In this document: positions 6,868 to 42,890 of the stretch, in pieces | How positions within the stretch are numbered: the stretch's first letter is position 1 | How the letters are laid out: each line of letters begins with the position of its first letter | From: an uncultured Clostridia bacterium | Lineage (GTDB): Bacteria; Bacillota; Clostridia; Christensenellales; UBA1242 | DNA: 64,000 bases | Assembly (NCBI GenBank): GCA_934754475.1 | Contig: CAKVHV010000001.1 | Location: forward strand, 251,670 to 315,669 | Reading direction: 5' to 3' | The notes under the pieces: generated by a model | The model's input: the letters and a program-made list of their open reading frames with translations, nothing else | The model's database searches: none | Told to the model about the DNA's origin: nothing | Position numbers and translations under genes: made by a program

Positions 6868-7890
6868 ATGGCAAGGATTAAATTTAATGGCGTTGATATA
6901 GATACAATATGCCAAAAAAGAACCGACACAAACTATGGTCCAGTGCCAGCAATGAAATACTTCAAACTAAATGGTCAAGAAGCTTTTGATTATGTAAAAG
7001 GAACGAGTGGGTATGTCTTCAGCGAAAATATTGACATACCTATTTCTCTTAATGGCAAGCGAGTTCCTTTCGATTCAATAGGAACAAGACCATTGTCAAT
7101 AGATAGAGGTATGGATACTTCAAACAACGCAAAAATTTACATTCAAAGAGCATCCGATGGAAGAATATATAGAACAGTAGGAAACTCAACCGATAGTGAC
7201 TATACCATTGCACCAGCATCACTAAAACTTCGTGGACTTATTATAAGTCAATGTGGTGCAGGTGGCTCAGGTGGCGGTTCATCAAGTGGAACTGCTGGAA
7301 GTGGTGGCGGTGGTGGTGGATCTATGGTGTTTTACATTAAAATCCCAAGAAACTTTGTTGGAGTTTTGTGCCGAATGGACTTCTCAGATGGAGATGCCTA
7401 CCTTAATTGGCGAGATGTAACAGGTGTTTATTTATTATCAAGTAAAGGTGGAGGCGGCTCTTGGAATGGTGGAGGAGCAGGTGGTGCTGGAACAGGAATG
7501 GTAGTGGAAGGCGATATGCTTAATGTTGCGGCAGGACACATTGATGTTGTTAAAAGTGCAAATGGTGGCTCAGGTGGTGGAACAGGCAATCGTGGTGGCA
7601 ATGCAGATTTGCTAATGCTGATGACATATCCTGAGGACTCGACCTATACCGTTGTATGGTTTAGTCAAGGTGGACTTGGTGGCAATGCTGGTGGCTCTGG
7701 AAATGATGCTGGAGGTGGCGGCGGAGCAAGTTCTTGGGGTGGTGGTGCAGATGGCGCATCACCAGGACAGAACAATGGTAAAAATGGTGGCTACGGAGCA
7801 GGCGGCTCAGGTGGCGGTGCAAAGGTTTGGACTTTTACAAATCGTAGTGGAGGTTCTGGTGGAAATGCTGGAATCTGGTACATTTATTAA
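6868..7890 (+). CDS. glycine-rich tail-fibre-associated protein
   Basis: 340 aa. Globular N-terminus followed by repeated poly-Gly blocks (CGAGGSGGGSSSGTAGSGGGGGGS, GGGGSWNGGGAGGAGTG, GGGGGASSWGGGADG). Lies next to the tail fibre gene. Confidence 0.6.
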   Translation: MARIKFNGVDIDTICQKRTDTNYGPVPAMKYFKLNGQEAFDYVKGTSGYVFSENIDIPISLNGKRVPFDSIGTRPLSIDRGMDTSNNAKIYIQRASDGRIYRTVGNSTDSDYTIAPASLKLRGLIISQCGAGGSGGGSSSGTAGSGGGGGGSMVFYIKIPRNFVGVLCRMDFSDGDAYLNWRDVTGVYLLSSKGGGGSWNGGGAGGAGTGMVVEGDMLNVAAGHIDVVKSANGGSGGGTGNRGGNADLLMLMTYPEDSTYTVVWFSQGGLGGNAGGSGNDAGGGGGASSWGGGADGASPGQNNGKNGGYGAGGSGGGAKVWTFTNRSGGSGGNAGIWYIY

Positions 7891-26342: not shown

Positions 26343-26419
26343 AATTGTAGTTTTTAATCAAAAAGACTTGACAATTACAAAATTTTATATATAATTAAGT
26401 AGAATAAAAACAAAAGTGG

Positions 26420-35750: not shown

Positions 35751-37030
35751 ATAAAGAATTGTCTCTATCATATATGATTTTGAAAAAAGTTATTTTGGAT
35801 AAGTCATATGTGAGTATAGAACTTAACAAAGCCTTGCAAAAGAATCCAAATATCAATACAGCACTTGTCACAAAGATTGTGTATGGAGTGCTTGAAAAAG
35901 ACATAACTTTGGAGTATTTTGTTGAGTGTAATATAAACAAAATGCCCAAACCAGAGATTTTGATACTTCTCAAAATGGTCGGGTATATTTCAAAAACTAT
36001 TAATAGTATTCCAACATTTGCACTTGTAAACGAAGTAGTTAATTTAGCCAAAAAAGAAGATAAATACGCATCGGGTTTTGTAAATGCTGTAAGCAAAAAA
36101 TTAATATCTAGTCAAATTGTATTGCCTAGCAAAAAAGACAAAATTAAGTACATGAGTGTTAAATATAACTATCCTGAGTGGGTTATAAGCGAGTTACTTA
36201 AGAGTCACGACGAAAAGTTTGTTGAAGACTTGGTGTCAGTTAATCTTACAACTCTTACACATATTAGAGTTAATCGTAGTCTTATTTCTGCTAGAGAATT
36301 TAAAATTAAACTTGAATTATTCGAAATTAAATACGAGCCAAGCCTATATGACTATACAATGTATGTAGACTATGCAAAATTACTCAAAGTCAAAGATTTA
36401 GACAAACTTTATGTGGTTCAAGGACTTCCTAGCATAATTACTTGTAATGTCTTGGGTGCGACTAAGGGCAAGGTTTTGGATACATGCTCAGCACCGGGGG
36501 GAAAGGCTATATTCTTGGCTGAAAACAAAAATTTGGATATTTTTGCTTGCGATATACATGGTCATAGACTTGATTTAATCAAAAAGTATGCAAAAAATTA
36601 TGATGTAACAAATATTCATTTTTGTTTGCAAGACGGAACAAAATTTAATCCCGCTTGGGAAAATAATTTTGATTACGTCCTTTGTGATGTGCCATGTAGT
36701 AACTTGGGAGTATCCCGAAAAAAACCAGATGTGTTTTTGAACAAAACTTTAAATGATGCAAAAATGCTAAGTGGAATTCAGTATCAAATACTCGAAAACT
36801 CGGCTAGATATGTTAAGTCTGGCGGGATTTTGCAATATTCAACTTGTACAATTATAGATATAGAAAACAGATGCGTAATTGAAAAGTTCCTAAAGAATCA
36901 CAAAGATTTTGAATTAACTGAAATTGAAGTCCCAAATTTGAATGTTTCAAACGAATCTGGACTTTGTACATTTTATCCAAACTTAACCCATACCGAAGGA
37001 TTTTTTATAGGGAGATTAAAGAAAAAATGA
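35747..37030 (+). CDS. rsmB: 16S rRNA (cytosine967-C5)-methyltransferase
   Basis: DTCSAPGGK SAM motif, CDVPCSNLG and YSTCT catalytic Cys motifs; def-fmt-rsmB order. Confidence 0.85.
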   Translation: MNKELSLSYMILKKVILDKSYVSIELNKALQKNPNINTALVTKIVYGVLEKDITLEYFVECNINKMPKPEILILLKMVGYISKTINSIPTFALVNEVVNLAKKEDKYASGFVNAVSKKLISSQIVLPSKKDKIKYMSVKYNYPEWVISELLKSHDEKFVEDLVSVNLTTLTHIRVNRSLISAREFKIKLELFEIKYEPSLYDYTMYVDYAKLLKVKDLDKLYVVQGLPSIITCNVLGATKGKVLDTCSAPGGKAIFLAENKNLDIFACDIHGHRLDLIKKYAKNYDVTNIHFCLQDGTKFNPAWENNFDYVLCDVPCSNLGVSRKKPDVFLNKTLNDAKMLSGIQYQILENSARYVKSGGILQYSTCTIIDIENRCVIEKFLKNHKDFELTEIEVPNLNVSNESGLCTFYPNLTHTEGFFIGRLKKK

Positions 37031-38232: not shown

Positions 38233-39088
38233 AGTAGTCAAAATCGTTGGAGATATTTTTACAGTACTCAAAAAAGATTCTTTAGTTTCGGCATGTTGTC
38301 TCAAAAATATAAAGAAGAATCGTGTAGTTGTTGGTGATGATGTCGAACTAAAAAAAGACGAGTATAGTGTAGACAAATACATTATAACCAAAGTTTTTCC
38401 ACGAAAAAATTGCATTCCACGACCAGTTGTCGCAAACATAGACAAACTCTTAATTCTTGTAGCAAACGAGCCAAAGCCGGACTTTTATTTGGTTGATAAA
38501 TTATATATCTATTCGGTTACGAATAATATTGAACCCATAATAGTTATAAATAAATCAGATATTTCGGACAAAAGTTTTGTAGACAATATCAAATCTCAGT
38601 ATGGGTTTATCAAGACTTTTGTAATAAGTGCCAAATGCAAAAGCGGGATAGATGAACTCAAAAAATACATTTTGAAGTCAGTCTGTGCTGTTTGTGGACA
38701 ATCGGCAGTAGGGAAATCATCACTCATTAATGCTTTGATTCCAGATGTCTATCAGTCGACACAAGGTCTAAGCGAAAAGATTTCTAGGGGAAAACATACA
38801 ACTAGAGTGAATGAACTATTCGTTTGGAACAATTTGTGTATCGCTGACACCCCGGGATTTAGTAACTTGGATTTGAATATAGACTTTGACGAGTTGCAAG
38901 AGTATTATCCGGAGTTTCAAAAATATAGAGAGAATTGTAAGTATTTAGATTGTTCTCATGTCGGCGAAGGCAAAGATTGTGGAGTAATCAAAGCAAAAGA
39001 TATGGGGAAGATAAATAAAGATAGATACCTAAGATATGTGGATTTATACAATAAATTAAAAGAAAATTGGGAGAAAAAATATGATTAA
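38204..39088 (+). CDS. rsgA: ribosome small subunit-dependent GTPase A
   Basis: CGQSAVGKSSLINAL, DTPGF, C-terminal zinc motif CKYLDCSHVGEGKDC. The start could equally be the ATG at 38216. Confidence 0.85.
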   Translation: MAKSMIEKNKVVKIVGDIFTVLKKDSLVSACCLKNIKKNRVVVGDDVELKKDEYSVDKYIITKVFPRKNCIPRPVVANIDKLLILVANEPKPDFYLVDKLYIYSVTNNIEPIIVINKSDISDKSFVDNIKSQYGFIKTFVISAKCKSGIDELKKYILKSVCAVCGQSAVGKSSLINALIPDVYQSTQGLSEKISRGKHTTRVNELFVWNNLCIADTPGFSNLDLNIDFDELQEYYPEFQKYRENCKYLDCSHVGEGKDCGVIKAKDMGKINKDRYLRYVDLYNKLKENWEKKYD

Positions 39089-39740
39089 AGTATTGCCAAG
39101 TTCAAATCCATGTCCCGAAGACAAACTCTTGGGATATTCCAAAAAACTTATGGAACTAGGAGTTGAGTACTTGCACTGTGATGTTATGGACGGTGAGTTT
39201 GTTGAAAACTTATGCCTTAACTTTGAAACACTCAAGTATGTTAGAGACAATTCTAATATCTTGCTTGATGTTCATCTTATGACATATAATTTGTTAGAAA
39301 CAATCACTAAATTTTCAAGTTTGAAACCTAATATAATTACATTTCACTACGAAGCACTCAAGTCCGAAAGAGAGTTTTTCAAAATTGTCAAGTTACTCAA
39401 AAAGGAAGATATACTAGTAGGTCTTGCAATTAAACCTAATACACCAATAGACGTAATAACTAGACTAATAAATAGTGTAGATTTAGTTTTAATTATGTCA
39501 GTAGAACCGGGCAAAAGTGGTCAAATGTTTTTGGAAAGTTCTTATGAAAAAATAAAGACAATCAAGAAATTAATCAAAGACAAAAATATAATTATCGAAG
39601 TGGATGGCGGAATAAATAGCGACAATTCACAAAAAGTAATTTCCTGTGGTGCAGACTTTTTGGTTATGGGGTCGGCTTTTTATAATTCCAAAGACAAGTT
39701 GGGCTTGCTTTGCAGTATTGATTCTCACTACAAAAAATAA
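39081..39740 (+). CDS. rpe: ribulose-phosphate 3-epimerase
   Basis: HCDVMDGEFV, IMSVEPGKSGQ and VDGGIN motifs. Confidence 0.88.
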   Translation: MIKVLPSSNPCPEDKLLGYSKKLMELGVEYLHCDVMDGEFVENLCLNFETLKYVRDNSNILLDVHLMTYNLLETITKFSSLKPNIITFHYEALKSEREFFKIVKLLKKEDILVGLAIKPNTPIDVITRLINSVDLVLIMSVEPGKSGQMFLESSYEKIKTIKKLIKDKNIIIEVDGGINSDNSQKVISCGADFLVMGSAFYNSKDKLGLLCSIDSHYKK

Positions 39741-39882
39741 TTTACTAAGTCAAAATTTCATTTTGTTTTGTTAGTTTGAAAATTTCGCAATAATTAATTA
39801 CATTCAATTTTCAATTAATTCTTCACTAAATATTTTTGAATTTCATATAATGATTAAAAGTATTTATGAAAAAGGGGTATTT

Positions 39883-39963
39883 ATGAAAATTTATTGCTTC
39901 AAACTTCCAAAATTTTTGAAACCATTATTTAAATTAATATTTAAAAACCAATTAAATGAATAA
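39883..39963 (+). CDS. candidate 26-aa cationic amphipathic peptide
   Basis: MKIYCFKLPKFLKPLFKLIFKNQLNE with an AAAAGGGG RBS 7 nt upstream. Below the ORF-track size cutoff; no other support. Confidence 0.25.
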   Translation: MKIYCFKLPKFLKPLFKLIFKNQLNE

Positions 39964-39977
39964 TATTTAATTTACAT

Positions 39978-40226
39978 ATGAAAATTATTATAACTGTTGA
40001 TTTTTCAAATAATCAATTCAATAGCGACTTTAGTCTTTCTAATGTTCTCTTGCAAGAACATACTATTTTGTTAGTTACAAACAAAACTCAGCTTGAAATT
40101 GCTAGAAAATCTTATGACTTAATAGTTTCAGGTTATTCTAGTTTTAAACTAGACAAGCCCGATTATGATATTAATGCCTTAGATTATTTGCCCGACCAAT
40201 TAATAGATATAATTAATTCTAAATAA
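39978..40226 (+). CDS. hypothetical protein
   Basis: 82 aa ORF followed by a strong terminator. No motif recognised. Confidence 0.4.
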   Translation: MKIIITVDFSNNQFNSDFSLSNVLLQEHTILLVTNKTQLEIARKSYDLIVSGYSSFKLDKPDYDINALDYLPDQLIDIINSK

Positions 40227-40233
40227 AAAAATT

Positions 40234-40268
40234 CACTAGTATTAACTAAGTAATACTAGTGTTTTTTT
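40234..40268 (+). terminator. rho-independent terminator
   Basis: CACTAGTATTA-ACTAAG-TAATACTAGTG followed by T7. Confidence 0.75.
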
Positions 40269-40280
40269 GTTCAAAAGAAC

Positions 40281-40310
40281 TTGACAAATTAGAACGGGGG
40301 GGGGTATAAT
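40281..40310 (+). promoter_or_regulatory. consensus sigma-A promoter with a G9 homopolymer in the spacer
   Basis: TTGACA (40281-40286), 18-nt spacer AATTAGAACGGGGGGGGG (G9 at 40296-40304), TATAAT (40305-40310). Lies 47 nt upstream of the lipoprotein gene. Confidence 0.7.
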
Positions 40311-40356
40311 ACTGATGAAGGAGTGTACATTTTGCACTTAAAACAAAGGAGAAAAA

Positions 40357-41475
40357 ATGAAGAAAAAAGGGAAAATAATTACAGCACTAGCATCAATTGG
40401 CTTGTGTCTTGGCGGAGCGGTTTTGTTATCCGGTTGTGACAAAGGTGGAAATGCTGATGGAAGTAATAACACAACTGATGCTCAAATAAGAGTGGTGTAT
40501 GCCGAAGCAGTTGAGAACGGATACACTGGAACTTACGAAGAATGGCTAGAAAGTATAAAAGGTGCAAAAGGTGACAAGGGTGATACTGGATTAAAGGGCG
40601 ACAAAGGCGATAAGGGAGATAAAGGTGACCCAGGTGCACCGGGAAAGGATGCAACTGTTGCTACATATACAATCACTTTTGATTATGGTACTACAGATTT
40701 TGCAGGTACTCTAGAAATGAGACGTTTATTTACTAATGCATATCTTAGTGGAACAATTAAGTCAAATTCATGGATAAAAAATATGCCAAAACCCAAGGCG
40801 GAATATGGTGACTTTTTTGATGGGTGGTATATTGAAGATACTGATAAAAAAATTGAAGACTATGATTTTATAGGTGGTGATGTCAAATTAGTCGCTAGAT
40901 ATAAGGATATTGGTTGGAGTTTGACTGGACAAACTTATGTTGTTGATGAAAATAGCAAATTGGTTATAATCAATAAATCCGACAGTTCTGACACAATTTC
41001 AAAATATATTAAACGCAGTATAGACAATATAGAAACTAGTTTGATTGAAAGAGTTGTTGTTTTTGATGAAACTGTCAAAGGGATTATGGATTTGGGTTTT
41101 TATAATTGTAAAAATCTTAAATCAGTTGTTTTGCCGGATAGTATTAACTGGATAGGTACTAGTGCTTTTTCAGGGTGTAATTCATTAAATTACATATCAT
41201 CATCTTCAAATCTTGAGAGTATAAAAGATAATGCATTTTCTGGTTGTAGTTCATTAAGAAATATAGCGCTATCTAATAATCTACAAAGAATAGGTGATGC
41301 TGCTTTTTCTGGCTGTGATTTGCTATACTCAGTTAGTTTTGATGGATTACTAAGTGAATGGTTTCAAATTGAAATGGTATCAGCTTCAAGTAATCCGCTA
41401 TATAATGCACCTAGACCAACTCTCAAAGTTAAAGATGAAAATAATGAATGGATAACCGTGGATTTAACGTATTAA
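40357..41475 (+). CDS. surface lipoprotein with a collagen-like Gly-X-Y repeat and BspA-type leucine-rich repeats
   Basis: Signal peptide with lipobox LLSGCD. GAKGDKGDTGLKGDKGDKGDKGDPGAPGKD triplet repeat. YTITFDYG...FDGWY repeat. LRRs of the type IGTSAFSGCNSLNYI / IKDNAFSGCSSLRNI / IGDAAFSGCDLL. Confidence 0.8.
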   Translation: MKKKGKIITALASIGLCLGGAVLLSGCDKGGNADGSNNTTDAQIRVVYAEAVENGYTGTYEEWLESIKGAKGDKGDTGLKGDKGDKGDKGDPGAPGKDATVATYTITFDYGTTDFAGTLEMRRLFTNAYLSGTIKSNSWIKNMPKPKAEYGDFFDGWYIEDTDKKIEDYDFIGGDVKLVARYKDIGWSLTGQTYVVDENSKLVIINKSDSSDTISKYIKRSIDNIETSLIERVVVFDETVKGIMDLGFYNCKNLKSVVLPDSINWIGTSAFSGCNSLNYISSSSNLESIKDNAFSGCSSLRNIALSNNLQRIGDAAFSGCDLLYSVSFDGLLSEWFQIEMVSASSNPLYNAPRPTLKVKDENNEWITVDLTY

Positions 41476-41855
41476 AAATTGGTGAAAATGGTTATTCAAT
41501 GCCAAAAGCATATACAACTCATGGTTTTTATAGAATTCAGTTTGGCTCAGATATAACTGATATTCCAGATGAAATTTTTGCTAATAATAAAATTTTACAA
41601 ATAGTTGAGCTTACAAATAATATCAAAACAATAGGTGCTAGCGCATTTGGTGGTTGTACAAAAATTGAAGCAATCTATTTGTCAACAAATGAAAGTCAGT
41701 ACGAAGCAGTTCTTAAAAATAATATTGGAAATTACAATAAATGTTTTACTGATAATGTCAAATTTTATTCCGAGACACAGCCAACTGAAAATCTTGAAAA
41801 TTACTGGCACTACGATAGTGATGGTGTTACTCCAGTTATTTGGTCTGCGGAATAA
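41448..41855 (+). CDS. LRR-domain protein without a signal peptide (possibly the frameshifted 3' part of the preceding lipoprotein gene)
   Basis: IPDEIFANNKILQIVELTNNIKTIGASAFGGCTKIEAIYL continues the same LRR type. It overlaps the upstream ORF by 28 nt in another frame and has no RBS or leader of its own. Confidence 0.5.
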   Translation: MDNRGFNVLKIGENGYSMPKAYTTHGFYRIQFGSDITDIPDEIFANNKILQIVELTNNIKTIGASAFGGCTKIEAIYLSTNESQYEAVLKNNIGNYNKCFTDNVKFYSETQPTENLENYWHYDSDGVTPVIWSAE

Positions 41856-41871
41856 AACTAATACAAAAATA

Positions 41872-41907
41872 AAAAAATACAAACGTCAAAAAAGTTTGTA
41901 TTTTTTT
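41872..41907 (+). terminator. rho-independent terminator
   Basis: ATACAAAC-GTCAAAAAA-GTTTGTAT followed by T7. Confidence 0.7.
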
Positions 41908-41977
41908 AAATTTCATCAAAAAATAGGTTGTATTTATCCTATTATTTGTGATATAATAAAAATGTTAGGGGGTATTT

Positions 41978-42217
41978 ATGATTACAGATACAAACAATTT
42001 AATATCTATTACAGAAGCAAATCAAAATTTTTCTAAGGTTGTAAAAAATGTTGAACAAAATGGCGAAGTGATAATACTCAAAAATAACAAGCCACAATAT
42101 GTAGTTTCAAAATTTGAAAACAAAGAAAATACATTAGACGAAAATGCTATGACTTTGGTTGTTGCCAATATGATTTTAACTGAGCATTCAAGGGCTTTTA
42201 AGGAGCTAGGAAAATGA
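41978..42217 (+). CDS. phd: Phd/YefM-family antitoxin
   Basis: 79 aa. ISITEANQNFSKVVKNVEQNGEVIILKNNKPQYVV is typical of the Phd/YefM N-terminus. Overlaps the doc start (ATGA). Confidence 0.8.
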   Translation: MITDTNNLISITEANQNFSKVVKNVEQNGEVIILKNNKPQYVVSKFENKENTLDENAMTLVVANMILTEHSRAFKELGK

Positions 42218-42594
42218 TAAGATTTGACAAAGAAAAAGTTCTTCTTTTGCAACAATTAATCATTAAATCTTCGGGTGGAACTGCGGGTGTTAGAGATTTT
42301 GGGTTGCTGGATTCTGCTATAAATAGTGTTTATCAGACTTTTGATGGTGTAGAACTATATCCTTCCAAAGAAGAAAAGGGTGCAAGACTTGGATTTTGTT
42401 TGGTATCCAATCATGCATTCGTTGATGGAAACAAACGAATTGGTCTGCTTGTTATGTTATCCTTTCTTGCAATAAACGGGATTAAAATGAAATATACTGA
42501 TGATGAATTAATAGAAATAGGGTTGGCTCTTGCAGATGGCAAAATGAAATATGAACATTTGCTTAATTGGATTAAGGAACATAAGATTTATTAA
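42214..42594 (+). CDS. doc: Doc (death-on-curing) Fic-fold toxin
   Basis: Fic/Doc motif HAFVDGNKRIG. 126 aa, coupled to phd. Confidence 0.85.
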   Translation: MIRFDKEKVLLLQQLIIKSSGGTAGVRDFGLLDSAINSVYQTFDGVELYPSKEEKGARLGFCLVSNHAFVDGNKRIGLLVMLSFLAINGIKMKYTDDELIEIGLALADGKMKYEHLLNWIKEHKIY

Positions 42595-42598
42595 TTAT

Positions 42599-42636
42599 AA
42601 ATAGCAACTAAGGTTTAATTTAGTTGCTATTTTATG
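42599..42636. terminator. bidirectional terminator between doc and rpmB
   Basis: AAATAGCAACTAA...TTAGTTGCTATTT hairpin flanked by A and T runs. Confidence 0.65.
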
Positions 42637-42701
42637 ATATTGAATTCAAACAACAAAAAAACTCCTAACAATTTTGTTAGGAGATATTTTTATATGTCAA
42701 A

Positions 42702-42890
42702 TTACTTTTCTTCGTTTTTAAGAGTTTTTAGACATCTTGTGCAAATATATTCGTTTTGGATTTTTCCGTCAACTTCAATAGATTTCTTTTGAAGATTCGC
42801 ACCCCAAGTTCTTCTTGTAGCGATATGAGAGTGACTTACTTGGTTTCCAGCCACTTTTTTCTTACTACATATAAAACATTCTTTTGCCAT
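42702..42890 (-). CDS. rpmB: 50S ribosomal protein L28
   Basis: MAKECFICSKKKVAGNQVSHSHIATRRTWGANLQKK is typical of L28. The track ORF extends upstream of the true ATG. Confidence 0.9.
   Translation of the reverse strand: MAKECFICSKKKVAGNQVSHSHIATRRTWGANLQKKSIEVDGKIQNEYICTRCLKTLKNEEK

Follow-up and report, generated by a model that had tools for sequence, protein, structure and literature searches.

The 64-kb stretch of DNA analysed here (the window throughout; contig CAKVHV010000001.1 of an uncultured Clostridia bacterium, 31.9% G+C) carries, on the plus strand, a gene for a predicted lipoprotein with collagen-like and leucine-rich repeats (LRRs) that is preceded by a consensus promoter with nine consecutive G residues (G9) in its spacer. 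The placement of this tract between perfect promoter hexamers, its length polymorphism among closely related strains, and the presence of simple repeats at the same place upstream of distantly related lipoprotein genes suggest that the G9 run is, quite probably, a slippery switch that alters the spacer length of the only promoter of this gene. We infer from these observations that the promoter is used, that its spacing affects transcription, that clones switch rapidly and reversibly, and that variation is selected for.

The promoter and its G tract

Direct reading of positions 39900–40700 and a consensus promoter scan of positions 38500–42500 agree on the architecture of the promoter (in context, cTTGACAaattagaacGGGGGGGGGTATAATactg). 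The −35 hexamer TTGACA (40281–40286, plus strand) is located 5 nt inside the left edge of an accessory island (see below) and is followed by an 18-nt spacer, AATTAGAACGGGGGGGGG (40287–40304, plus strand), which consists of AATTAGAAC and the G9 tract. The tract itself (40296–40304, plus strand), identified by a homopolymer census of the window and through its strain alleles, directly abuts the −10 hexamer TATAAT (40305–40310, plus strand), which lacks a TG extended −10 motif. The two hexamers match the consensus at 12 of 12 positions, the sole such match across the scanned region, and the statement of a preliminary description of this locus that the two boxes are 18 nt apart, with nine of these positions taken up by the G run, is thus borne out by both methods. 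The 88 nt that separate the end of the upstream terminator from the ATG at 40357 accommodate this promoter, a 46-nt leader, and a ribosome-binding site, AAAGGAG (40345–40351, plus strand, by direct reading), 5 nt 5′ of the start codon; transcription is predicted to start near 40317. No other promoter between the upstream terminator (which ends at about 40268) and this ATG fits, as judged by the scan and by folding. Also rejected were a different promoter and initiation within the G run itself (reiterative transcription), as the 27 nt between the terminator and the tract contain no plausible −10 or −35 element.

The homopolymer census of the 64 kb yields one G9, one G6 (36496–36501), six G5, and three C5 runs, and no others, so that the run at 40296–40304 is the only G or C run longer than six. 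The expected number of G runs of nine or more per window is 0.010 under a model of independent bases and 0.020 under a first-order Markov model, in agreement with the earlier claim that this is the only long G/C homopolymer in the window and is unlikely to have arisen by chance. Perfect matches to TTGACA-N16-18-TATAAT are also in excess, with two in the window compared to 0.20 expected (100 shuffles, none of which reached two). The arrangement of the G9 run within the promoter is not attributable to chance. The other perfect match is TTGACA-16-TATAAT at 26368–26395.

Promoters recognized by sigma-70 or sigma-A generally depend on a spacing of 17 ± 1 nt. Given perfect hexamers and the lack of a TG extended −10 motif, the output of the promoter should depend on spacing, with a peak at 17 nt. 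In the proposed mechanism, slipped-strand mispairing during replication would add or remove one G in the tract, so that the interval that separates the −35 and −10 elements presented to sigma-A would step between 17 nt (G8), 18 nt (G9, the window strain), and 19 nt (G10). Output would be maximal at 17 nt (G8); spacers of 16 nt and of 18 nt (G9) would lower it, and one of 19 nt (G10) would leave little. The population would then be a mixture of cells that make much, some, or almost no lipoprotein. Such control would be heritable and reversible, a graded volume dial rather than a strict on/off switch.

Tract length in strains and spacer repeats in homologues

The 372-aa lipoprotein is absent from the clustered protein collection, and island-bearing contigs were found via the neighboring proteins. 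The G9 tract and the 18-nt spacer of the window are shared by ERR7746349 (L001), which does not differ from the window over 3,667 nt and probably represents the same strain, hence is not independent. In three samples, ERR10692596 (L092/L096), SRR29134054 (L093/L097), and SRR29133874 (L104), the tract is G10 and the spacer 19 nt long, and in SRR31242776 (L095), an interrupted tract, GGGAGGG, gives a spacer of 16 nt. The left flank TTGACAAATTAGAAC and the right flank TATAATAC are identical in all island-bearing assemblies, which come from five independent samples. An invariant G9 across strains is the observation that the preliminary description had named as speaking against phase variation; instead, G9, G10, and GGGAGGG are found between invariant flanks. 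Its expectation that the spacer would toggle between 17, 18, and 19 nt holds for the 18- and 19-nt forms, to which a 16-nt form has to be added, but not for the 17-nt form, which is unseen.

An alignment of four strains over 2.75 kb contains 53 variable columns and six indel sites, five of which fall in homopolymer runs, the remaining one being an intergenic AT pair (41869–41870). The G tract is the sole indel site with three length alleles. By their SNPs, the window and L092 form one pair and L093 and L095 another; since the two members of each pair have different tracts, the tract must have changed at least twice among island copies with more than 99% identity. Together with the spacer repeats of the homologues described below, these changes lend support to the earlier reading of the tract as a site of slipped-strand variation, and G9 at 40296–40304 is most likely the hypermutable element of the promoter. 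Two other homopolymers also vary in length: the G5 at 41968–41972, in the ribosome-binding region of the phd gene (see below), is G6 in L095, and the T7 tail of the upstream terminator (40262–40268) is T6 in L092, L093, and the strains that lack the island.

Distant relatives were identified by a protein-guided genome scan with the 372-aa protein. The matches listed are dominated by the DKGDKGDK collagen pattern and include no close orthologue, only the distant homologues L002, L014, L056, and L063; the complete comparison of homologues covers about a dozen lineages. In 654 kb of homologue loci, there are six G or C runs of eight or more, i.e., about one per 100 kb, and four of the six are located in a promoter-like spacer. 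In L063 (35% G+C), the promoter TTGAAA-ACATGC-G8-TTC-TATAAT, with a 17-nt spacer, is located 24 nt 5′ of a gene for a 724-aa collagen lipoprotein that shows 48% identity over residues 1–99. The metagenome-assembled genome that contains L063 is labelled Bacteroidaceae; the TTGAAA-17-TATAAT promoter and the AAGGAG ribosome-binding site are of the Firmicute style, unlike Bacteroides promoters, and the taxonomic label of this bin may be wrong. In L002 (33% G+C), TTGAAA-AATTC-G9-TGGT-TATGAT, with an 18-nt spacer, lies 5′ of a gene for a 150-aa protein that is followed by a gene for an 876-aa collagen/LRR lipoprotein, and in L014, a short G5 is embedded in a 17-nt spacer.

The locus L056 (labelled Candidatus Gallimonas, 56% G+C) contains TTGACA-AATAC-G10-CAGGG-TATAAT before a gene for an 841-aa collagen lipoprotein, and further strains of this lineage were reached through the neighboring yqfD gene. 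The promoter of the lineage, TTGACA-AATAC-Gn-CATGG-TATAAT, again precedes a homologous collagen lipoprotein gene, and the tract is polymorphic, with G10 in L056 and L114 and G9 in L107, L111, L115, and L116 (six assemblies). The contig L112 of the same lineage ends exactly at the G tract, a possible indirect sign of length variation within a population. The lipoprotein, encoded between gap and yabP/yqfD, comprises 723–841 aa with 20–26 collagen triplets in L056, L107, L111, L114, L115, and L116; because the triplet counts differ, the coding repeat is length-variable, as is the promoter tract.

A different type of repeat is present in L118 (34% G+C; one strain), where the protein P0016 is the closest full-length homologue (36% identity). 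Here, TTGACA-A(GGCT)x5C-TATAAT (2431–2464) contains a perfect tetranucleotide repeat that fills a 22-nt spacer, and loss of one GGCT unit would yield an 18-nt spacer. By contrast with these lipoprotein genes, in L050 (labelled Saccharibacteria), the fourth run in a promoter-like spacer, a G9 within TTGCGC-17-TATAAA (6934–6962), precedes a 143-aa open reading frame (ORF) and a reverse transcriptase gene (RVT_1). This site is preceded by a collagen-like gene and a 537-aa ORF, possibly genes for tail fibres, and the locus may be a phage diversity-generating retroelement with a slippery promoter.

The repeat-bearing homologues share 30–48% protein identity and come from genomes with 33–56% G+C. 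The repeated location of rare runs inside an 18-nt target, in several lineages and with another type of repeat besides, suggests selection on mutability; this is a rough argument rather than a formal test. Given that at least three lineages have G8–G10 tracts and a fourth has (GGCT)x5, spacer repeats might be a recurrent and probably selected trait of the collagen-stalk lipoprotein family in uncultured gut Clostridia, a generalization that we put forward only tentatively and consider somewhat less probable than its opposite. Exact-pattern scans for the promoter produced no match in JGI metagenome contigs and likewise none in viral contigs. The viral collection yielded eight promoters that combine perfect hexamers with a spacer tract of G8 or longer. 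In the IMG/VR contigs L121 (9885–9915) and L126 (13061–13091), both with 36–37% G+C, TTGACA-N7-G10-TATAAT, with a 19-nt spacer, is located 6–7 nt before the ATG of a gene whose product starts with MKKHKHYQGFTIIEVV, an N-terminus resembling that of type IV prepilins; this, too, would be a surface-structure gene with a G-tract promoter.

The split lipoprotein gene and its accessory island

The product of the first reading frame downstream of the promoter, ORF1 (40357–41475, plus strand, 372 aa), is also found as the exact same protein in independent assemblies. Its N-terminus, MKKKGKIITALASIGLCLGGAVLLSGC, as read from the translation, combines a positively charged start, a hydrophobic stretch, and a lipobox, L-S-G-C (residues 24–27, with cleavage before C27); these are the features by which bacterial lipoproteins are recognized, and the protein is a predicted substrate of Lgt and LspA that is presumably exposed on the cell surface. 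The signal is followed by a conserved YTGTYEEWLESIKG module (YxGTYEEWLxSIKG), collagen triplets, a middle domain, and BspA-type LRRs. There are 10 uninterrupted G-X-Y triplets (residues 69–98), rather few for a stable triple helix, and the score against the Pfam Collagen profile (PF01391), 25.5 bits, is just under the cutoff of 27.2, which the homologues from L063 (75 bits) and L056 (36.4 bits) pass. The LRR_5 profile (PF13306, cutoff 27.7) matches ORF1 with 86.5 bits and, with 35.3 bits, also a second frame, ORF2 (41448–41855, plus strand, 135 aa, by translation and Pfam), which is in the −1 frame, overlaps ORF1 by 28 nt, and encodes the C-terminal part of the LRR region with a conserved YWHYxxDGxTPxIW end.

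When ORF1 and ORF2 are conceptually fused, the product can be aligned over its full length with the single-chain homologue P0019 (residues 1–479), including the YWHYxxDGxTPxIW motif, which indicates that the two frames derive from a single ancestral gene that a frameshift within 41442–41475 has split. Programmed −1 ribosomal frameshifting was considered and rejected given that 41442–41475 contains neither an X XXY YYZ slippery heptamer nor a homopolymer; the split is more likely a fixed frameshift mutation, and translational coupling from the ATG at 41448 could still be a route to ORF2. The earlier characterization of the product as an exposed lipoprotein with collagen-like and BspA-type LRR domains accordingly stands with regard to the lipobox, the LRRs, and the triplets, with the proviso of the subthreshold Collagen score, and is to be corrected in that the frameshift had been overlooked, as had the strain-specific nature of the whole unit, which is an island.

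Both ends of the unit are delimited by terminators. Upstream, a core gene for an 82-aa protein (39978–40226, plus strand, ORF) is followed by a strong Rho-independent terminator (40232–40268, plus strand) with an 11-bp stem, a 6-nt loop, and a T7 tail, detected by scan and folding (−16.5 kcal/mol, z = −6.1). It is present also in strains without the island and is predicted to shield the lipoprotein gene from upstream transcription. In L095 (the 2030–2057 region, corresponding to 40234–40261 of the window), the 6-nt loop of this terminator is reverse-complemented, from ACTAAG to CTTAGT, with the stem unaltered, which looks like a palindrome-mediated micro-inversion. Downstream of ORF2, there is a second terminator (41870–41908, plus strand; −13.6 kcal/mol, z = −6.9; inverted repeat I5), and this terminator, together with the separate promoter of the genes that follow, implies that the G-tract promoter drives the split lipoprotein gene only.

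The genes in question form a toxin-antitoxin module. A promoter, TTGTAT-18 nt-TATAAT with a TGTGn extended −10 (41928–41957, plus strand), recognized by direct reading as a consensus match only, precedes a gene for a Phd/YefM-family antitoxin (41978–42217, plus strand; PF02604, 39.1 bits, cutoff 29.8) and a gene for a Doc (Fic-family) toxin (42214–42594, plus strand; PF02661, 55.1 bits, cutoff 24). The two genes overlap by 4 nt (42214–42217), and the HAFVDGNKR motif in the Doc translation fits the Doc motif HxFx(D/N)(A/G)NKR, so that the pair has the characteristics of a Phd-Doc type II system with a predicted toxin. A third terminator (42601–42633, plus strand; −17.9 kcal/mol, z = −5.8) is located at the right end of the island.

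The limits of the island come from BLAST comparison with the empty-site strains L098 and L099, in which homology to the window extends up to 40275 and picks up again at 42649; 36 bp occupy the site of the 2,373 bp, and the flanks are 98.5–99.6% identical to the window. The island (40276–42648, plus strand) thus consists of the G-tract promoter, the split lipoprotein gene, a terminator, phd-doc, and a terminator. The neighboring 82-aa protein belongs to a cluster found on hundreds of human-gut contigs, one member of which is annotated ‘Clostridiales bacterium’. For its commonest variant, the island is absent in all 10 of the places shown, where rpmB, asp23, and fakA directly follow; in a second listing of places of the neighboring gene, the island is absent in six of the nine shown. 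Most strains of the species lack the island, which is present in a minority. The G+C content of the island equals that of its surroundings (31.9%). No integrase was found in its translations or by Pfam, nor is there any obvious target duplication. A plasmid or prophage origin is not supported: neither the PLSDB plasmids nor the GenBank phages include a close relative of the island, and only the collagen repeat and doc match weakly, doc at the DNA level to annotated phage doc genes. In the species of the window, the putative switch and its gene appear to travel together on this mini-island, which is predicted to be stabilized by the toxin-antitoxin pair.

Alternative explanations and relation to known systems

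Several observations weigh against a functional length switch. A 17-nt spacer, the predicted fully ON state, is found in none of the five independent island samples (16, 18, and 19 nt are seen) and in none of the six assemblies of the Gallimonas lineage, where the spacers are 19 and 20 nt long and a TGn extended −10 may render the promoter less sensitive to spacing. The interrupted tract of L095 is compatible with decay of the locus, as might be the split between ORF1 and ORF2, which is identical in all island copies, from four strains. About half of the homologues examined (L119, L025, L032, L034, L006, and L046) contain no spacer repeat, and the differences in length between assemblies could in part reflect homopolymer errors in short-read assemblies.

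The fixed frameshift, the interrupted tract, and the lack of the optimal 17-nt spacing in any island or Gallimonas-lineage allele, together with the rarity of the island in the species and the variation of other homopolymers (T7/T6 at 40262–40268, G5/G6 at 41968–41972), would fit a neutral hot spot in a decaying locus, where G9 mutates without selection and the frameshifted remnant persists thanks to the toxin-antitoxin module of the island. We consider this scenario unlikely because a G9 is strongly disfavored at 32% G+C and yet is placed exactly between perfect hexamers, and because repeats in the same spacer of homologues with 30–48% identity, (GGCT)x5 among them, are hard to account for without selection for mutability. 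Furthermore, the signal peptide, stalk, and LRRs of ORF1 are intact, and the haplotypes differ in this frame by four synonymous and three non-synonymous changes.

That the tract has a single true length, with G9 and G10 resulting from miscalls in short reads, is more improbable still. Illumina sequencing is error-prone at G runs of 9–10, all comparison sequences are metagenome assemblies, and contig L112 stops at the tract; however, the window and an independent Logan assembly of apparently the same strain both have G9 and are identical over the entire shared length, G10 occurs in three samples, and the tract itself is present in every assembly. The GGGAGGG allele carries a substitution in addition to the change in length, along with other linked differences, and hence is not explicable as a length miscall. 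Only marginally more credible is the possibility that the tract is a protein-binding or structural element, such as an operator or a rigid G·C block, under conventional regulation, with length variation being incidental. Promoter tracts do act together with regulators in Neisseria opc and Treponema pallidum tprE/G/J (PMC7864442), and the CATGG that follows the tract, being conserved between L050 and the Gallimonas lineage, might represent a motif. Nevertheless, no regulator gene was detected on the island among the translations or by Pfam, the sequences flanking the tract differ among lineages such that the conserved feature is the position of the tract in the spacer, and the tetranucleotide repeat that replaces the G run in L118 points to length over sequence.

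Finally, an inverton is excluded by the combination of missing inverted repeats and missing recombinase. Besides the three short hairpins I5, I10, and I15, the region 39700–42800 contains only short, imperfect, AT-rich inverted repeats (16–28 nt, mostly 71–88% complementary), none of which brackets the promoter, and no recombinase gene was found near the promoter in the ORF translations or with the Pfam profiles of the locus. Thus, a slippery spacer that sets the length of the promoter of the lipoprotein gene is the explanation that we favor over these alternatives.

Most known cases of phase variation among gut commensals involve invertible promoters, in Bacteroides and a small number of Firmicutes. 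To our knowledge, repeat-driven promoter switches are textbook material only for pathogens, namely Neisseria, Haemophilus, Treponema, Mycoplasma, and Campylobacter. Neither for gut Clostridia nor for collagen-like lipoproteins does the literature searched, a limited library, contain a prior description of such repeats in promoter spacers. If the proposed mechanism is correct, cheap mutations of this type may also be a means by which uncultured gut Clostridia vary their surface. Should spacer repeats be a selected trait of the whole lipoprotein family, slipped-strand loci would, beside invertons, make a widespread and largely overlooked contribution to the surface heterogeneity of gut commensals. 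The length of the tract in metagenomic reads would then serve as a marker for the on/off states of surface antigens, and the lipoprotein family would be flagged as likely to be under immune or phage pressure. Assemblies give the majority tract length only, so that annotation alone cannot tell the expression state of such genes.

The closest mechanistic parallels are found in pathogens. In porA of Neisseria meningitidis, a poly-G tract is located in the core-promoter spacer, and slippage by one base alters the spacing and results in graded transcript levels (PMC7864442; van der Ende et al. 1995, cited in PMC5084427). The window resembles porA in having a G run in the core-promoter spacer of a gene for a surface protein. 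It differs in that porA encodes a porin of a Gram-negative pathogen, with no homology of gene or promoter, and in that switching was measured for porA, whereas here there is polymorphism between strains alone. In T. pallidum, poly-G tracts of about 7–11 are found in or next to promoters of surface-protein genes, namely tp0126 and tpr (E, G, J, and L); in tp0126, the tract is located between −35 and −10 and transcription is best at a 17-nt spacing, and in tprL, G8 permits expression, which falls almost to background with G10 (PMC7864442). Poly-G in or beside the promoter of a surface-protein gene is again the shared feature; T. pallidum, however, is a pathogenic spirochaete whose genome contains many such tracts and whose proteins are unrelated, and the heterogeneity within isolates was established there by fragment analysis.

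In Mycoplasma hyorhinis, the vlp lipoprotein genes are each switched by a poly-A tract in the −35/−10 spacer. The likeness to the window consists in variable surface lipoproteins of a low-G+C, Firmicute-derived lineage and a homopolymer in the spacer, whereas vlp is a multigene family with poly-A tracts and repetitive coding regions in a wall-less organism that uses genetic code 4. The window has one such gene and was read in code 11, in which all ORFs appear intact. The comparison with Mycoplasma, Neisseria, and Haemophilus drawn in the preliminary description is therefore apt as an analogy of mechanism and does not extend to homology.

Among gut commensals, replication slippage in poly-G tracts controls a surface structure in Bifidobacterium breve UCC2003, in the pilus clusters (PMC9187656). 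The commonalities with the window are the human-gut commensal lifestyle, the slipping G tract, and the surface structure. B. breve is, in contrast, an Actinobacterium, and its tract reportedly lies in the coding region, where it acts as a translational on/off switch. Invertons are the most familiar means by which gut commensals make adhesins and capsules phase-variable (PMC11892184). They differ from the window in that they require flanking inverted repeats and a recombinase, both absent at this locus, and phase variation in gut commensals has been described also via epigenetic switches (PMC11741434). With a spacer repeat of sufficient length for slippage (about 7 or more for G/C), polymorphism between strains with fixed flanks, and a surface-type product, the locus resembles contingency loci of the porA/tp0126 type, by analogy with which switching and an effect on output would be expected. 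The mechanism would accordingly fall into the known porA/tp0126 class, the new elements being its apparent occurrence in an uncultured gut commensal and the hint that it might be a trait of a lipoprotein family.

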